From a virus (Duplodnaviria; Heunggongvirae; Uroviricota; Caudoviricetes): a DNA stretch of 8,322 nucleotides. Numbering within the stretch: the first letter of the stretch is position 1; the number at the start of each line of letters is the position of its first letter. Made by a program: the position numbers and the translations under genes. Shown in pieces: positions 1-8,322 of this stretch. Below the pieces are notes generated by a model. It did no database searches, was not told the origin of the DNA, and saw only the letters and a list, made by a program, of their open reading frames with translations. Where the stretch lies: the IMG/VR virus record IMGVR_UViG_2547132274_000001; one strand, given 5' to 3'.

Positions 1-796
1 ACTGAATGGTTAACGTACTGCCATTTGTGGCAAGAAAGCCGTCTTTATCCACGCTGAAGAACGTAGCTAACAGGATGTTGTCGGTTGTTGTCGCCGCATT
101 ACGACTGCTGACCAGTGTGTCAGGAACAGAGCCGGAAAAGGTTAGCTGCATTGACCTGTTTGCGGTTCCGCTGGGCCACGTCCCGACGATCGACAGCTTG
201 AAGAACAAGGTTTTGTTCTCGTTGAACACAACCATCTTGTTGTTAACGGTGTCGAAGAATGGTGCCAACGTGCCGGATGACGGCGTGAGCGTTTTCAGTA
301 GGCTAACAAGGTTGGTCGGCGCTGTCGGGATGGTTACAGATACGCCAGAGTAAACAACCTCCGACTTCTTGCGAGTAGTGGCATACTCCAGAGCATCGAT
401 GCGCGTTTCATGGTCTGAAACCTGCGACTCCAGCGACTGAACTCTTGTGTCAAGCGACGAAATATCGCTTTCATTCTGAGCTATTCGTGTTTCATGGTCC
501 TGAAGAGTTGATTCTGCCTGGCTGATTCGCTCCTCATGATTAACAAGCGTTGCTTCCGCAGCAGAAATTCGCTGCTCATGGTCAGCGAGAATCACATCCT
601 GCTCATCGTTCCTGACCTGTGCATCATAAGCGCCCTGTCCGGCCTCGTTGGCTTTGTTAGCCACGTTACCAACATCAGTGCCCTGTGCGATAACGTAAAG
701 CAGATACGACTGCGAGAAGATATTGCGTGGAAGGACTGATGTGTCTAGCCGTGTAGCCTGAATGATTACCGGCACATTGAGATTCGAATCCGCCAT
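1..796 (-). CDS. Tail needle / cell-envelope penetration protein (P22 gp26-like), 3'-truncated by the window edge (265 codons visible, no stop)
   Basis: Hand translation of the minus strand from the ATG at 796..794 gives an open frame to position 1: [77 protein letters not shown]... The N-terminal ~70 aa resemble the gp10-binding N-terminus of P22 gp26 as I recall it. The start overlaps the upstream gene's stop as TAATG. Position directly after the gp10-like gene matches P22-family synteny. Absent from the ORF track only because no stop lies inside the window. Confidence 0.85.
389..589 (-). repeat. In-frame tandem repeat inside the tail-needle gene, about 42 nt (14 aa, two heptads) period, encoding the coiled-coil segment
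   Basis: Translation shows the motif [D/N]HExRI recurring at residues 72, 86, 100 and 128 ([15 protein letters not shown] / [14 protein letters not shown] / [11 protein letters not shown]... / [10 protein letters not shown]). The underlying DNA shows recurring CATGAG/CATGAA-CGAAT blocks. Imperfect copies. Confidence 0.55.
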
Positions 797-2214
797 TACT
801 CAATCCTTATCTGGCAGCCAGACAGAGTGACAGGTGACTTCGTGATAACGCGCAATTTGAAACCAATGTTTTTCCTGATGCGCCCTACTCGTTTCCACAA
901 AACGCGTTTGTCGTAAACGAACGGTTCATTCTGCTCAATCATCTGTTCACGCCCGTAATTGATGCCGTCAGTGGTTGCAGAGAGAAAAAGGCGGTCAGCA
1001 TACTGCGCAACGCCAGTTGACGATTCAACCTCAAGGTCGAACACTCTGGCGTTATCCGCTTTGAACAGTGGAGTAAACAGCAGGTGTTCCTGTTGCTTGT
1101 CGTACTGGCTGCTGATGTCGAATTGCAATTTCCCGGTCACGGACTCCAGCTTATCGCCGCACGTTATCTGATTGCCTTCGTAAATGAAGTCGATAGCGCG
1201 GTACACATCGTCATACAGGCCTGTTTTCAACACACACCATTGCGGACCATTGGCGCTTGAAGATGCGTCGTAAACAAGAACATGGCGCGGCAGGTGAATA
1301 ATCAGCAACTCATGAGCATCAAACCGCAGCGATTCCATCACACCATCAGCCAGTTCATCAGCAGTGTAGGAGCGGAGGATTTTCTCAATGCTCGCGCTGG
1401 CAATTGGTGACACCTGACCGGAGCCGATGATATACACAGACGGCGCACCCGTTGCCGGATTGCTGATGAACGCATAGGAATCAGCAAACGGCGTTTTGCA
1501 GTAAGTCCCGGCGATGCCTTTTTGCACCATCAGTGATGGCTGTGCGACATACAAAGCAGCACCAACGGTGGTTGCGCCAGTCAGGGAGAAATATTCAATA
1601 GTCGATGAACCAAAGCAGACGATGAAGTCTCGCCATGTCCCGATACCGATGATGCCGTCCGGCTGAGACTCGGCACGATATTGTGCGCTGTATCGGTCAG
1701 GATGTGATTCGTCTTCAAGGTCAGTGATAAACCATGAATCAGTACCGTCTTTTGACCACGCATAACGCCCACGTAAGCGAGTAATGTCACGAACCGAACC
1801 TAACTCATACTGCGTGAATCCGCTGTCTGTAGGCCAGTTTGATACGGTTTTAACCGTGCCATCATAGCGATACTCGACCAGTTGACCATTAACGCCTACC
1901 GCCTGTGATGTCCGACCATGCGCCATTGATACGCGACCACTTCCGGCAACGTCACCGACCTCGCTTTCGCCCTTATACAACTTGCCACCACACACGCGAT
2001 ACACAGCATTCTGCGCCATGTTGTACTCGACGCCGCGCGATACACCGTTCACATCAGAGCGTTTGGCAATGCCCGGGAATGAGCGAAGATATCCGCTGCT
2101 GTTGAGTATTTCTTTGGGTGTAGCCAGCATATTCACTGGCAGATAGTCGATATAGTCGGCGTTTCGAAAGTCTTTGCCGACACCTTTCATAAGCGGAAGT
2201 TGCTGAATCGGCAT
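796..2214 (-). CDS. Tail hub / head-completion protein (P22 gp10-like), 472 aa
   Basis: ORF track 796..2214 minus. Same length as P22 gp10 (472 aa), and the sequence ([49 protein letters not shown]...) matches what I recall of gp10. Shine-Dalgarno GAGGTGA sits 5-6 nt upstream of the ATG and overlaps the stop of the upstream gp4-like gene. Position between gp4-like and needle genes. Confidence 0.88.
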
Positions 2215-2223
2215 TTATTCACC

Positions 2224-2685
2224 TCACGTACTCGGATCATCTTTCTCGATGTAAAACCGATTCCACGTAAACGCGCTTTTGTTACCACTGCCGCGAGGCA
2301 TGTCATTTCGCCGCTCAAGTGGTGGTATTTTGGTTAAAGCGATACAGATTGTTTGATATGCACTGTCAGCAGCGGTAAGGAGAGCGTCTGACGGCTGAAT
2401 GACGTTATCCATGCACACTTGCACAGCGAGTTTCAAAGCGACGCCATCATTTGCCCATGCAGGGATACCTGAATCATCGTCCGGTAACGGCATGATGCCG
2501 TTTTCTGTATCAGCAAACTGATACCCAAGCTCGATACCTTTAGCCTGCCATGCTGCCATCATGTCTTCGAGGTCATTAATGGCATCTTCAATTGCCTGAG
2601 GGTCAGCATCTGTCAACGTGGCATTGGAATACAGCCCGGCTTTTCGTAAAGCCTTTAGAACGAGATCACCCTTCGTTTTCGCCAT
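2224..2685 (-). CDS. Tail adaptor / head-completion protein (P22 gp4-like), 153 aa
   Basis: ORF track 2224..2685 minus. N-terminus MAKTKGDLVLKALRKAGLYSNATLTDADPQAIEDAINDLEDMMAAW resembles the P22 gp4 N-terminal region as I recall it. Size is close to P22 gp4 (166 aa). Synteny between coat and gp10-like genes. Confidence 0.82.
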   Translation of the reverse strand: MAKTKGDLVLKALRKAGLYSNATLTDADPQAIEDAINDLEDMMAAWQAKGIELGYQFADTENGIMPLPDDDSGIPAWANDGVALKLAVQVCMDNVIQPSDALLTAADSAYQTICIALTKIPPLERRNDMPRGSGNKSAFTWNRFYIEKDDPST

Positions 2686-2854
2686 CTTCTTCCGCCTTAG
2701 CCACTTTTTGCTTCGTTGCGGTTTCTTCAGGAGTTTTTACCCAACCTTTTTTCAGGTGAGATTTAACTTCTTCGTCATCAACAATGATGTAATCGACAGC
2801 AAACTGACCACAGGTGATCATGTTGCCAGGCTTATAGAGCATTGTTCGTGCCAT
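2666..2854 (-). CDS. Small hypothetical protein (62 aa) between coat and tail-adaptor genes
   Basis: The ORF track gives a 75-aa version from 2893, but that start is TTG and lies inside the terminator hairpin. An in-frame ATG at 2854..2852 is preceded by GGGAG (2861..2865) at 6-nt spacing, giving MARTMLYKPGNMITCGQFAVDYIIVDDEEVKSHLKKGWVKTPEETATKQKVAKAEEDGENEG. The 3' end overlaps the gp4-like start by 20 nt. No family recognised. Confidence 0.5.
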   Translation of the reverse strand: MARTMLYKPGNMITCGQFAVDYIIVDDEEVKSHLKKGWVKTPEETATKQKVAKAEEDGENEG

Positions 2855-2860
2855 TGTCTT

Positions 2861-2865
2861 CTCCC
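2861..2865 (-). promoter_or_regulatory. Shine-Dalgarno (GGGAG) for the 62-aa ORF
   Basis: Minus-strand sequence ...CCCCATTTTTATTGGGAGAAGACAATG; GGGAG lies 6 nt before the ATG at 2854. Confidence 0.6.
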
Positions 2866-2890
2866 AATAAAAATGGGGCCGAAGCCCCAC
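2866..2890 (-). terminator. Intrinsic-terminator-like hairpin immediately downstream of the coat gene
   Basis: Minus-strand RNA 5'-GUGGGGC-UUCG-GCCCCA-UUUUUAUU-3'. A 6-bp G/C-rich stem (plus 2874..2879 pairs with 2884..2889) has a UUCG tetraloop (2880..2883) and is followed by a U-rich tract (2866..2873). It begins 5 nt after the coat stop codon (2896..2898). Confidence 0.6.
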
Positions 2891-2895
2891 CAAAA

Positions 2896-4149
2896 TTACT
2901 GCCCGGCAATAACGATGCCCGTATATTCAGGAACCAGTACAGAGCAACCGTACAGAGTGGTGAAACGCGCAGTGGTTACGCCTTTGATATGGTCGAAGGC
3001 GTAAGACATGATCAGCGTAGCGCCCTGCTCGGTGGTTGCTGTCATTACCTGTGGACCCTGACCAGTCGGGAACGCCAGTTTGCCGTACATCAGTTCAACA
3101 GAACCATCAGCCCAGAACAGGTTAGCCGGTGCGGCATTTTTGTTGAGAATGGTAATTGCTGCACCATTTGCCGCGTTAGCATCAACGTTTGCATATGGAC
3201 GGCTGGCGACATCTGCGTTGTCAGGCGGCAGAATTTTCGGGGAGATAGTTACTGTCGTTCCGCTTACTGCCAGAACGCGGAATACCTGCGGCTGCCCGGT
3301 GGTGTCTTTGGTGATCTGGTGTACAGAATTCACGCCAGCAATGGTGAACGCATCGCCAACCTGCAACCCAGATGCAGATACCGTAATAGTCCCCTGTCGG
3401 TTATCCACTGGCATATCGTTGGCATCTTTCGCTTCAACCTTGTGCGCAGGTTCAGCCGCCAGCGTCAGGGAAGTTGCTGTACCCTTCGGAACACGACCAG
3501 AAATATCCGTCTTGTAGCTATCGAAGGAAGCAATCGGAGGGATCTGCGCCTTTTCGTATGCTGTCAGGGTTGCGCCCTGAGCATAGGCACGGTGACCAAG
3601 CTCGCCAGCAAGGTCTTTGTAGTTGAAGGGGTTCCAGAAAGAGCGACGGTTGATACCCTGCGGTACACCAATCGCCGTCATGGTGGCATCAATACCTGCC
3701 GCACAGTTCCACAAATCACGGCCCTGTGAACCAGTGGTTGAGTCAGCCATTGTGATCACGTTAGTAGCACGCTGCGTGACCATGGAAATCAGGTCAGAGT
3801 CAATCTGTGCAGCAAGGCGCATACCTGCGGCGCGACCAGCTTCAGTTTTATGTTCCGGGTCACGCATTTCACGCGCATCCAGAGTGTACAGAATGTTTTT
3901 CGGCTCCTTGAACACAGAAGGAACAAGGCGCTGAACCAGTGCTGTTGGCGTTTTGCTGCTGAGGTCGAGGCCTTCCTCAATGTTCATGTGGTAATGCTGC
4001 GGACGATACAGAACATCACCTGCTCGCTGCATTGCTGTATCACCGGGACGGAATTTTTTAGCGTTACGGGAAACTACGCAGGCGGCCTCAAAGCCTTCAA
4101 CGTAGTTTTCGAACATGATTTCAAGGTCTTTTGCTAATTGGTTAGCCAT
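2896..4149 (-). CDS. Major capsid (coat) protein, 417 aa
   Basis: ORF track 2896..4149 minus. Lies directly downstream of the scaffold gene and upstream of the adaptor, the invariant coat position in P22-like phages. Size is near P22 coat (430 aa). GGAG-type Shine-Dalgarno about 9 nt upstream of the ATG. Followed by a terminator-like hairpin, as is typical for a highly expressed coat gene. Assigned mainly by synteny and size; I do not recognise it as the P22-type coat sequence. Confidence 0.82.
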   Translation of the reverse strand: MANQLAKDLEIMFENYVEGFEAACVVSRNAKKFRPGDTAMQRAGDVLYRPQHYHMNIEEGLDLSSKTPTALVQRLVPSVFKEPKNILYTLDAREMRDPEHKTEAGRAAGMRLAAQIDSDLISMVTQRATNVITMADSTTGSQGRDLWNCAAGIDATMTAIGVPQGINRRSFWNPFNYKDLAGELGHRAYAQGATLTAYEKAQIPPIASFDSYKTDISGRVPKGTATSLTLAAEPAHKVEAKDANDMPVDNRQGTITVSASGLQVGDAFTIAGVNSVHQITKDTTGQPQVFRVLAVSGTTVTISPKILPPDNADVASRPYANVDANAANGAAITILNKNAAPANLFWADGSVELMYGKLAFPTGQGPQVMTATTEQGATLIMSYAFDHIKGVTTARFTTLYGCSVLVPEYTGIVIAGQ

Positions 4150-4167
4150 GCTTAATGCTCCGATAGG

Positions 4168-5061
4168 TTATTTTTTTGCCTTTTTAGCGGCGAAATACGG
4201 CGTCCAGTCACCAGTTTCCAGCGCCTTGGCTTTCAGTTTGTCGAGGTTATTGATTACTGCGCCGTTGCTCCCCTTAACTGTCGGGGTTGTGGCTGCCGTG
4301 GTTTTTGCTTTTGGCATGATTCTGGCCTTAGATTCGATACGTTCCAGCAGACGACCAATTGCTACGGGGTTGGTAGCTTCTGCCAGTTGCTTGCGCAGTT
4401 CAGCGTTGCGACCAAGCGCCAGAACAACGATTTCCGGCTTCTCTGACTCAAACAGGATCGCGTTTTGTGTCTCGATGGGGATTTCCTCGAGTACGGCCTG
4501 TTCTGCTTCCTGATAGCCAGGAACCTTGAGAGCCTTAACACGTTGCTGATATTTGGATAATCGCTCTTGATAGGCAGCCTGAAGCTCCTGCTCCTTCTGC
4601 TTGCGAGCAATCTCCTGTTGCTGGTACTTGCCGTGATCCTCTGCCCACTTAGCCATGCGTTGCTGATAGATTTCTTCATCGAAACCGATGTCCTCATCAT
4701 CCAGTTTTGGCATTCGCGGTGGTTGAGTGATTACCTGCTGCTGCTCGACGGGTTTCTGAGACTGACGCATCAGCTCTTTCAGCTCACGGTCTTTCTCTTT
4801 AATCGTCTTGCGCAGGTGTTTTACCAGTCCATGCTCTGCGCTATCTTCGCTGGTTGGCGAATCCAGCTTTTCGTCACCAAAGTAGAATTCCTGTTCTGAT
4901 TCGTCGTCATCAGTTTCAGTAGCTTCCTCTGCATCATTGCCGGAGGACTCACTGCCATCTTCTGTTTCGACTTCTTCAGCCAGTTCGACATCATCAGGAA
5001 TCTGCTCTGACGCGTCGGTTTCTATTTCAACTTCTGGTGTGTTTTCTGCCATCTGGTCCAT
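4168..5061 (-). CDS. Scaffolding protein, 297 aa
   Basis: ORF track 4168..5061 minus. Lies between portal and coat. Very acidic N-terminal ~85 aa, then a Gln/Glu/Lys-rich segment predicted helical/coiled-coil, then a basic C-terminus (...DKLKAKALETGDWTPYFAAKKAKK) of the kind that forms the coat-binding helix-turn-helix in P22 gp8. Size is near P22 gp8 (303 aa). AGGGG Shine-Dalgarno 6 nt upstream of the ATG. Confidence 0.8.
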   Translation of the reverse strand: MDQMAENTPEVEIETDASEQIPDDVELAEEVETEDGSESSGNDAEEATETDDDESEQEFYFGDEKLDSPTSEDSAEHGLVKHLRKTIKEKDRELKELMRQSQKPVEQQQVITQPPRMPKLDDEDIGFDEEIYQQRMAKWAEDHGKYQQQEIARKQKEQELQAAYQERLSKYQQRVKALKVPGYQEAEQAVLEEIPIETQNAILFESEKPEIVVLALGRNAELRKQLAEATNPVAIGRLLERIESKARIMPKAKTTAATTPTVKGSNGAVINNLDKLKAKALETGDWTPYFAAKKAKK

Positions 5062-5067
5062 TTGTTA

Positions 5068-5072
5068 CCCCT
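5068..5072 (-). promoter_or_regulatory. Shine-Dalgarno (AGGGG) for the scaffold gene
   Basis: Minus-strand sequence ...GAGTAAACAGGGGTAACAAATG; the purine-rich core lies 6 nt before the ATG at 5061. Confidence 0.6.
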
Positions 5073-5151
5073 GTTTACTCGATGTTCAGCCCATCGGAAG
5101 GCAATAGGGTGCCAGGCCTCATAAAGACAGCCATTGCACGTTATGGGTTAA

Positions 5152-7350
5152 TTACTGCTGTGGTTGTTGCTGAGTTGATTTTTGCAGGATGCTGCTGATC
5201 TCCATGCGCTGCGCATGGCCCTGTGCCTGACTTTTCAGGACAAGCTCTGCATCAGCACGGGCATTGTCTCCTTGCTGTTGCTGGAACTGTCCGAGCAGTT
5301 TCAGAGCCTCGCGGATATCAGATTTCTGCTGGCTATCGGCAGATGCGAGGATTTTCACAACATTTGCCGCTGCAACCTGAGCATCAGTCTGTGCCTGGAA
5401 TGCTTTAACCTGAATGGCTGCCTGTTCGTTCTGCGCTTTCTGCAATTCAGCCTGACCAGCAAGAAGCTGACCTTGCGCAGCAACCATAGCCGGATCTGGC
5501 TGACTGGCCTGTTGTTGTTTCGCCTGCTCAACCATTTGCTGCTCTTCTGGCGTTCTCGGCTTGATAACTCCAGACAGAAGCAACTGATTGCGGTTGTATT
5601 CTTTAAGGTCGTCCATCCCTTCGCCGTCCATATTGTCGAGAATCATCGACGATACAAGGTCGTGCTTCGGCGTTCCTGGTGGGATAAGTGCCAGCATGGA
5701 AAGTAACGACTTAACCGTTGCATCACGGCGAGTAGCGAACGACTGACCGACATCGACAGTCACTTCATAGTTGCCCTGCGAAAGGTCATTAAGCGCGATA
5801 ACCTGCCCTGTCTGACGGTCAACCACTTCACCAGTCATCAGCGCCACGTCATCGCTGCCGTCCTCATTAACGATACGCATCGGCGTATCACTGCCATAGA
5901 CCTCACGCGCCATAGAAAGCCACACAACGCCAGCGCGACGCATGGATTTAGCCATGTTGTCCATGTAGATATAGGACTGCGTATCCATCCGGTTAAAGAT
6001 GCTATCAACGGTATCGGTGGCGACGTTGCTCGGCATGTTCTCAAGCTGCGACGCACCTGTAATTTGCTGAATAGCCGTTCCGGTGTACTGCAATAGCCCG
6101 GCAAGAGCTGGAGGCATTTGTGTCGGAGGCGTATAACTGCTGACCTGAGCCTGCGCAGTAATATCTCCGTTTTTGTTTTTCAGACTGACCATTGGCAGGA
6201 ACGCCGGGCGATTTTTGTTGCGCTCCGCCCAATGAGTGGCAAGAGGACCAGGAATCATGTCAACATCAACTACAGGAATGCCATCACCGCCAGCCTGAGT
6301 AGCGTTATCTGCAATCATGGAAACCATCAGGTTCTCAAGACGCTGCGCATCCATCGCTTTTGCTGCGTGGCCTTCGATTCGCTCCTGATTATCAACAAAT
6401 GAGCGACGCCCATATACCGGGATGAGAGGAATATGTTCGCCCGGAATACGCTTCGGTTCTTCCAGCCATTCAGCGCCAGACAGAAGACCGCAATAAACTC
6501 GGCGTTTCTTCACTGTCCGCTCACCGATCAGCTCGAATGCACCATCGGTTAGCTCGTCGACAATATCTTTGATTTGATCTTCATCATAGATTGCCGTTTC
6601 TCCGCTAACAAGGTTGCGCCACGCCGTGAGCTTCACCTTCTCTATGCGGACTTCGTAGTAACGTCCAACATAGATGGCATCTGGCGTTGACCAGTCATAT
6701 TGAGTGCCAGTGTCACCACGAGAAAGGCTTGCCGCGATGGAATCAGGGTATTCAGCCTCGAACGCTTTGGGCGTCATGGAGAACATTTCCATAGCCCACA
6801 TAGCATCAGAGCGGTCATATTGCTTGCTGTCCTGATCGAAGAAGACGCATGTCGCTGGGTCGTAAACAGGAAGAAGGCTGATGCGTCGCTGCTCGTTACT
6901 TGGGTCCATTTCATCTTCGTAATCGGCACACATGCGGAAACAACCGAATCCGCCCATTACAGCATCATCAAATGCGTTATCACACGCTTCGCCACCGGAT
7001 GTTTCCTGATAGTCAGCGCGGAATTTGCCGTTCATTTTTTCGGCTAACGCTTCCGATGCCTTGTCATCCTTCGGCCTGAATTTAACGCTGATGCGATTCT
7101 GTCGATACTCGCCAATGATGCGATCACATTCACGGGCAATCTTATTCAGTTCAAAGCGCGGGTAATGCTCAAACCTGCCTTCATCAAATGAGTAACCAGC
7201 GTTTGTGCTGCCTTCCCACTGTGCGCCGGATACCCGGACGAAACGTTGAGCCTCAATAATCTGCTCACGCATATCCTGCGTTGCTGACCAGGCATTATCA
7301 AAGTTGCACAGCACCTTGCGATGCCAGTCAGTCATCTTTTTTTCTGCCAT
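5152..7350 (-). CDS. Portal protein (P22 gp1-like), 732 aa, with a C-terminal Gln-rich helical barrel extension
   Basis: ORF track 5152..7350 minus. Size is near P22 portal (725 aa). Internal and C-terminal segments (e.g. ...PRTPEEQQMVEQAKQQQASQPDPAMVAAQGQLLAGQAELQKAQNEQ... through the Q-rich tail ...QKSTQQQPQQ) resemble the P22 portal and its ~120-residue C-terminal barrel as I recall them. Lies immediately downstream of the terminase gene (stop TGA, 1 nt, then ATG). Confidence 0.93.
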   Translation of the reverse strand: MAEKKMTDWHRKVLCNFDNAWSATQDMREQIIEAQRFVRVSGAQWEGSTNAGYSFDEGRFEHYPRFELNKIARECDRIIGEYRQNRISVKFRPKDDKASEALAEKMNGKFRADYQETSGGEACDNAFDDAVMGGFGCFRMCADYEDEMDPSNEQRRISLLPVYDPATCVFFDQDSKQYDRSDAMWAMEMFSMTPKAFEAEYPDSIAASLSRGDTGTQYDWSTPDAIYVGRYYEVRIEKVKLTAWRNLVSGETAIYDEDQIKDIVDELTDGAFELIGERTVKKRRVYCGLLSGAEWLEEPKRIPGEHIPLIPVYGRRSFVDNQERIEGHAAKAMDAQRLENLMVSMIADNATQAGGDGIPVVDVDMIPGPLATHWAERNKNRPAFLPMVSLKNKNGDITAQAQVSSYTPPTQMPPALAGLLQYTGTAIQQITGASQLENMPSNVATDTVDSIFNRMDTQSYIYMDNMAKSMRRAGVVWLSMAREVYGSDTPMRIVNEDGSDDVALMTGEVVDRQTGQVIALNDLSQGNYEVTVDVGQSFATRRDATVKSLLSMLALIPPGTPKHDLVSSMILDNMDGEGMDDLKEYNRNQLLLSGVIKPRTPEEQQMVEQAKQQQASQPDPAMVAAQGQLLAGQAELQKAQNEQAAIQVKAFQAQTDAQVAAANVVKILASADSQQKSDIREALKLLGQFQQQQGDNARADAELVLKSQAQGHAQRMEISSILQKSTQQQPQQ

Positions 7351-7351
7351 A

Positions 7352-8322
7352 TCAACCTACACCACAAGGAATGGAGTAACTGGAATAGTCGGGTTGCGCA
7401 GCCGACTCCGGGCAATGCATACACATCATCAGCGCATCAGCCAGGTTAGGAGATGGAATACCGAGCTTCTGTTTCATTTCGACCTTAGTCATTAGCTCCA
7501 GCTTCCCGTTGTTATTGAATTTGCGCTGAATCTGCGTCAGTTCTGCAAACAGCTTCTCCAGCATCTTCTCGCCTATCGCTTCTTTGTCGAAACTCAGCAT
7601 GTCGTCGGGGTCTGCATACTCACCGTGGACAACCGCCCGATATGTCAGATAAAGCCTGTCAGCCAGCGCGTAATAGAATTGCGCTCGATTATTGCGGAAC
7701 ACATCACCAATAGTGCGAACGTTGTCGCCCTGTACGACTTCATCGGCCCATGCTCCGGCCTGATACGGTGCATCTTCATCGAATGGCGATTCGCTGCCCT
7801 TGAACATCGTGGCGGTGATTTTCTTGCCGGAGAACGCTTCCGTTGTCTGTCTGCGTAGCCCGGCACCAACACCATCACCATCCCACAGGTAATGGTCAGC
7901 GCCGTCTTCAATCGCCAGCGAAGTAGCCCAGTCAGCACCCTCGTTGATGTCCATCAGCAGACCTTCGGCAATGCGCTTAACTACCGAACCGTGACGCGAT
8001 GCGTAACCTTTAGCATCTGGCCCTGTATCTGACGGGTCATGCGCAGAAACAACCGCGCCTTTCGCTTTCCATCCGAGTTTCTTGTGCGCATCGGTTGCGG
8101 CTTCAAGCCATTCACGTTTGATGATTGCCATATCACTTGCGCTTACCGGCTCACCCAGCCAGATGTGACGATACAGTGTCGGATTTCTGCGTTTACACTC
8201 TTCCATCTCCAGACGGAGAACTTCAGGAAAGTGCGGGTTGTCGGTGTAGTTCACCGTCAGCAGGCAAATATCATCGGGAGGATTTACAACGAATGTAAGC
8301 GCTCCGTCTGTAACGTCTTGTG
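7352..8322 (-). CDS. Terminase large subunit, C-terminal (nuclease-domain) part; 5' end lies beyond the window
   Basis: The ORF track starts this ORF at a GTG at 8254, but my manual translation shows the frame stays open upstream to the window edge (...QDVTDGALTFVVNPPDDICLLTVNYTDNPHF...), so the true start is outside. Lies immediately upstream of the portal gene, as in all P22-like and most tailed phages. P22 TerL is 499 aa, consistent with about 175 aa missing. Confidence 0.82.
   Translation of the reverse strand, partial: QDVTDGALTFVVNPPDDICLLTVNYTDNPHFPEVLRLEMEECKRRNPTLYRHIWLGEPVSASDMAIIKREWLEAATDAHKKLGWKAKGAVVSAHDPSDTGPDAKGYASRHGSVVKRIAEGLLMDINEGADWATSLAIEDGADHYLWDGDGVGAGLRRQTTEAFSGKKITATMFKGSESPFDEDAPYQAGAWADEVVQGDNVRTIGDVFRNNRAQFYYALADRLYLTYRAVVHGEYADPDDMLSFDKEAIGEKMLEKLFAELTQIQRKFNNNGKLELMTKVEMKQKLGIPSPNLADALMMCMHCPESAAQPDYSSYSIPCGVG

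Follow-up and report, generated by a model that had tools for sequence, protein, structure and literature searches.

A partial Sf6-type tail needle gene at the end of a P22-like prophage contig

The gene at positions 1-796 of the window, which is the whole stretch of 8,322 nucleotides analyzed here, encodes an Sf6-type tail needle protein with a PF16532 knob. It derives from a P22-like (Lederbergvirus) prophage, and its truncation is the end of a contig; we put the probability of this reading at about 96%. The identity was settled by matches to PDB, Pfam, PHROG and phage genomes. This is one more copy of an already known protein, whose structure has been solved and which is widely annotated. 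The correct label for the gene is 'tail needle protein, Sf6 type (partial, contig end)', and the finding has little importance beyond annotation. The needle gene shares its strand with a P22-like virion module that fills the rest of the window; the genes for the terminase large subunit (TerL), portal, scaffold, coat, gp4, gp10 and needle follow each other in P22 order. The features are as follows.

1..796, minus strand: tail needle gene (homologue of Sf6 gene 9 and P22 gene 26), codons 1-265 of the expected 282, running off the contig end
605..796, minus strand: N-terminal tail-hub plug or virion-binding domain, needle residues 1-64, aligning to the P22 gp26 structures 2POH, 3C9I and 8EAP
380..604, minus strand: coiled-coil shaft of about 11 heptads, needle residues 65-139, made up of five repeats of 14 residues (DHExRIxxxExxLx)
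1..379, minus strand: C-terminal knob, a TNF-like jellyroll, residues 140-265 of 140-282, assigned by identity to 3RWN and by PF16532
796-2214, minus strand: gp10 homologue (tail hub or 'head closure'), 472 aa, PF11134 (1000 bits)
2224-2685, minus strand: gp4, PF11650
within 2666-2893, minus strand: small ORF that lies between the coat and gp4 genes, without a Pfam match at E 1e-5
2896-4149, minus strand: coat, PF11651
4168-5061, minus strand: scaffold, 297 aa, from the scaffold annotation in related phages, no Pfam match at E 1e-5
5152-7350, minus strand: portal, PF16510
7352-8294, minus strand: terminase large subunit, C-terminal part, aligning to the Sf101 terminase large subunit, no Pfam match at 1e-5

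Reading frame of the needle gene and the contig end

The minus strand from 796 to 1 holds 265 codons without a stop, beginning with an ATG at 796-794. The upstream gp10 homologue ends in a TAA that shares its last A with this ATG (TAATG), a 1-nt overlap that is also found in Sf6. The needle gene lies directly downstream of the gp10 gene, in the same order as genes 8 and 9 of Sf6 and as in Kapi1. The peptide quoted in the initial annotation is found letter for letter in this translation. At the nucleotide level the gene is 97.0% identical to positions 8254-9049 of Sf6, and 22 of the 24 differences are synonymous changes at third codon positions, which indicates that the minus-strand frame is under purifying selection. 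Opposite the knob-coding sequence, the plus strand has an ORF of 115 aa (6-353), which we take to be spurious, since the substitutions fit the minus-strand frame only. Between the coat and gp4 genes, the small ORF has 75 aa when read from a TTG start; it is called as 62 aa in relatives and is named 'virion structural protein' in Sf101. Window 1-2300 is matched in 1,245 of 5,426 complete E. coli genomes, in which RefSeq names the needle 'tail needle knob protein'.

The window is the exact reverse complement of an entire draft contig, AEJZ01000349.1 (assembly GCA_000208525.2, 8,322 bases; L013 in our set of loci). The needle ORF is cut at position 1 because this draft contig ends inside the knob-coding region, and the terminase gene is truncated likewise, so that each of the two genes is cut by a contig end. 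The initial annotation had described the C-terminal domain as incomplete. The ORF does run off the contig, and the extent of the loss is small: only the last 17 of 282 residues are absent from the window, among them the last strand and Lys277, a glutamate contact. Judging by Sf6, Kapi1 and five other needles, the absent C-terminus is expected to read SNGA(A/S)FTATTIKIIAEQ, with a stop and a gp14 homologue next, as in Sf6 and Kapi1. It had also been remarked that the gene was invisible in the supplied ORF track, and this is so because the track lists only ORFs that have their stop inside the source. ORF tracks that drop end-truncated ORFs can thus hide well-known genes.

A different account of the contig end is that the assembly broke in the knob because the genome holds a second, near-identical knob, in which case the C-terminus of this copy could differ from that of Sf6. 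Such a second knob may belong, for example, to a small P22-like remnant with an Sf6-type needle gene, of the kind reported in many E. coli genomes, and the altered C-terminus could be, for example, a recombinant or otherwise altered tip. No observation points that way, and we regard this account as very improbable.

Domain layout and identity of the knob

The needle is built from three parts. The N-terminal part is that of P22 gp26: the first 77 residues are 82% identical to it, residues 1-144 match the gp26 structures 2POH, 3C9I and 4ZKP with E values of about 1e-43 to 2e-43, and residues 3-64 match 8EAP_B with an E value of 2e-27. The resemblance of the first 70 or so residues to the gp10-docking N-terminus of P22 gp26, proposed earlier from the letters alone, is therefore confirmed by the structure matches, which extend to residue 144. 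This domain is conserved in all 13 needles that were aligned.

The shaft that follows, residues 65-139, comprises about 10.7 heptads and is strongly periodic. In residues 60-140, identity at a lag of 14 residues is 0.40 against 0.08 expected (z = 10), a value reached in none of 2000 shuffles; lags of 7 and 21 give z of about 2.6, and lag 28 is also raised. The description of a short, repeat-built coiled coil thus holds. At the DNA level the repeats appear as short matches of 17-23 nt with spacings of 42 and 84 nt, and Tandem Repeats Finder reported no repeat in window 1-900. An AF2 single-sequence model of the 265 residues places a helix at 42-143, with pLDDT above 90 over 70-130. In the same model the knob has pLDDT of 30-45 and is not usable, so that the assignment of the knob fold rests on sequence identity to a crystal structure.

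That identity is nearly complete. Residues 130-265 match the crystal structure of the Sf6 knob (3RWN chain A) at 135 of 136 positions with one mismatch (E 2e-80), and the HS1 knob (4K6B) at 134 of 135 (E 2e-79). The Pfam profile PF16532, 'Sf6-type phage tail needle knob', is matched with 354 bits against a cut-off of 27, over profile positions 1-158 of 175, and PHROG 1030, 'tail needle knob', with an E value of 3e-124. Over the available length the needle is identical to Sf6 gp9 (282 aa) at 263 of 265 residues (99%), and to the 'tail needle knob protein' of Kapi1 at 260 of 265. The change of character noticed near residue 140 is also real: the sequence is dominated by Glu, Ser, Ala and Gln before this point, and then by Thr (17%), Ser (12%), Leu (10%) and Val (10%). 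Together with the knob structure match, this bears out the earlier view of a Thr/Ser/Val-rich, non-coiled C-terminal domain, and the placement of the protein among the Sf6-type, knob-bearing needles stands on the matches to Sf6 gp9, 3RWN and PF16532.

It could be thought that the C-terminal part simply continues the all-helical fibre of P22 gp26 (triple beta-helix and inverted coiled coil), which would make this a P22-type needle, as the N-terminal 144 residues do align to P22 gp26 structures. However, these alignments end at residues 137-148, and residues 130-265 match 3RWN and 4K6B instead. P22-type needles (212-233 aa; in Sf101 and at loci L005, L007, L008 and L011) give no meaningful alignment past the shaft. 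The chance that this is a P22-type needle is negligible. The observations that would have spoken against a knob-bearing needle, namely a continuous P22-like coiled coil or a C-terminal region without a family of its own, were not made: homology to P22 gp26 stops where a different family begins.

Among named needles, the closest is the Sf6 gene 9 protein (NP_958185.1, 3RWN), which has the same domain layout and the same place after the gp10 homologue. It differs by two substitutions, at residue 92 (Ser here, Arg in Sf6) and residue 234 (Ala here, Ser in Sf6). The needle of Escherichia phage vB_EcoP_Kapi1 (QOC59570.1) is of the same 282-aa type with five amino-acid differences. In the 317-aa needle type of E. 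coli prophage HS1 and phage Gally (4K6B), the N-terminus and knob are near-identical to those found here, whereas the shaft is divergent in sequence and longer by 35 residues (5 heptads), with 16 heptads against 11 in the present needle. For the HS1 needle it was reported that the N-terminus is 98% identical, the shaft 67% identical with 16 heptads, and the knob 99% identical, and shafts in the family range from 11 to 16 heptads (PMC3741392). P22 gp26 (2POH, 3C9I), from Salmonella phage P22, shares the homologous N-terminal plug, the trimeric coiled-coil shaft and the gene position, and its role as a DNA-retaining plug is the same as that of the Sf6-type needle. Its tip is unrelated to the knob, being a narrow helical/beta-helix structure without PF16532.

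The residues known to bind ligands in the Sf6 knob are retained as far as the contig reaches. L-glutamate contacts, as listed for the Sf6 knob (PMC3741392), are present at E146, K200, S248, D250 and L255 in Sf6 numbering; K277 lies beyond the contig end, so that five of six are seen. The phosphate-binding triad S231-R232-N233 is also present. Directly after the triad, residue 234 (codon at window 95-97) is polymorphic, with Ala in this window, Kapi1, Gally and loci L010 and L012, and Ser in Sf6, HS1 and loci L006 and L009. This polymorphism is probably neutral.

Exchange of needle modules around gp10

Similarity to other phages changes abruptly within the needle gene. Window 1-8294 is 96.8% identical to phage Kapi1. 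Collinearity over the whole window is found only with Kapi1, 720R6 and phiKp_30, and among the phages listed only Kapi1 combines it with high identity. In Sf101, Huey, CUS-3 and phiv205-1 the head genes are 95-97% identical to those of the window, and the similarity ends at window 573-597, which corresponds to needle codons 67-75. For Sf101, CUS-3 and Huey the matched stretch runs from about 573-597 to 8294 and leaves out only the needle shaft and tip. The opposite pattern is seen in Sf6, whose match is confined to window 1-2224, comprising the needle and gp10; the head genes upstream of these in Sf6 are unlike those of the window.

Comparison of loci L005-L012, which come from different genomes, places the exchange around gp10. 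A gp10 identical over all 472 residues to that of the window (gene from 7419 onward in these loci) adjoins needles of 233, 282 or 317 residues, of which the 233-residue form has a P22/HK620-type tip, the 282-residue form is the present type, and the 317-residue form has the knob on a shaft five heptads longer. The same identical gp10 also adjoins two sets of head genes, with either Terminase_6 or Terminase_3 and with portals of 721, 732 or 696 aa. Since an identical gp10 is accompanied by differing needles and differing head sets, the reassortment around it must be very recent.

Junctions also occur inside the needle. At L011, the N-terminus is identical to that of Sf6, and at about residue 61-70 it gives way to the shaft and tip of a P22-type needle. 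The needles of two prophages, L009 and L010, have 282 aa like the present one, with near-identical N-terminus and knob, but their shaft sequence differs from that of the window at residues ~70-125 (window 421-587); the shaft is therefore an exchangeable cassette even without length change. In the 13-needle alignment, the knob is nearly invariant wherever it is present, and the shafts of knob-bearing needles fall into at least three sequence types. N-terminus, shaft and tip therefore assort independently, in the three-module shuffling that Leavitt et al. (2013) described (PMC3741392). The proposal in the initial annotation of a mosaic build, with the distal domain as a hotspot of horizontal exchange, agrees with the occurrence of the same gp10 beside different needle types.

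The mosaic is of a widespread needle type that has been catalogued before, and it is not peculiar to this locus. The locus adds one more example of the documented shuffling of plug, shaft and tip in P22-like needles. Sf6-type knobs were found in 69 of 164 P22-like genomes, from phages that infect Escherichia or Shigella, with a mutual difference of at most 4.9%, and Leavitt et al. propose that the knob arrived recently from outside the P22-like group (PMC3741392). In our searches, the knob was matched in 290 phage records, compared with 146 for the N-terminal 77 residues of the needle, and the latter records are nearly all P22-like. The 290 records include knob homologues with 48-57% identity in myoviruses of about 157 kb and about 178 kb and in podoviruses of about 45 kb, whose hosts are Salmonella, Citrobacter, Klebsiella, Edwardsiella, Dickeya and Aeromonas.

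Proposed role of the knob and state of the prophage

Homology to Sf6 gp9 and P22 gp26 suggests that one needle consists of three chains. Its N-terminal ~60 residues, folded as helical hairpins, would close the gp10 tail-hub channel and so hold the packaged DNA in the head. Residues ~65-139 would form the three-stranded coiled-coil shaft, and residues 140-282 a trimeric knob with the TNF-like jellyroll fold at the far end of the needle, binding one L-glutamate per subunit interface as well as phosphate at the tip. During infection the needle would leave the virion and the channel would open. As judged from published P22 chimeras, the tip domain would modulate the kinetics of DNA delivery without setting the host range. 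This scheme follows work on the family and the cryo-EM placement of the needle in Sf6 (PMC3741392; PMC9728967). For the present protein, the trimer, the closing of the channel, the binding of glutamate and the effect on kinetics are inferred from these near-identical characterised proteins.

The distal domain had been pointed out as the part that contacts the cell envelope. From the position of the needle this is reasonable, as a literature-based expectation, while the published chimeras oppose a role in host specificity (PMC3741392). A bolder version would make the knob a host-specific domain for binding a secondary receptor, exchanged between phages to change host range. Indeed, the knob lies at the end of the needle and reaches past the tailspikes, its fold resembles the receptor-binding knobs of adenovirus and PRD1 (PMC3741392), the tip module is exchanged independently of gp10, and the phage records with knob homologues are of very different types. 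However, chimeric P22 with the HS1 knob is efficient at infecting Salmonella, and replacements of the tip (e.g., by foldon) leave the phage viable but slow potassium efflux (PMC3741392). The small divergence among the knobs of P22-like phages given above is also unlike that of a diversifying receptor-binding domain. In that study the tip was concluded to adjust how fast the DNA is delivered, a part in host specificity was judged unlikely, and a specific role in the infection of Shigella by Sf6 was left open (PMC3741392). A function of the knob in receptor choice is accordingly unlikely for the present needle too, and a kinetic role remains the preferred reading.

Another matter is whether the needle is still put to use. 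The last position with any phage homology is 8294, within the terminase large-subunit gene, and the last 28 bases of the window (8295-8322) are GTAAGCGCTCCGTCTGTAACGTCTTGTG. Exact copies of this sequence are found in unrelated replicons of E. coli, both chromosomes and plasmids, at a distance of about 55-85 nt upstream of IS66-like tnpA genes, and the outer flank of the copies differs between those replicons. Terminal repeats of the IS66 family typically begin with GTAA. Positions 8295-8322 are the terminus of an IS66-family element, with the junction at 8294/8295 in the terminase gene, and the repeated end of this element is the reason why the contig stops on the 8322 side. The terminase is probably interrupted, and the prophage is thus probably defective. 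The terminase gene of Kapi1 is intact and lacks the IS66 end, unlike that of the window.

On these grounds the needle gene may be a relic, of Sf6-type sequence but no longer used in virion assembly because the terminase was lost to the insertion sequence. Leavitt et al. also noted P22-like remnants with an Sf6-type needle gene in more than 100 genomes of E. coli (PMC3741392). Against this, each of the window's seven reading frames is open, and, apart from the two substitutions, the drift of the needle from Sf6 is only synonymous, so that any inactivation must be recent. We consider the chances evenly balanced between a relic and a needle still in use. The relic reading concerns present use, and the identity of the gene as an Sf6-type tail needle is the same under it.
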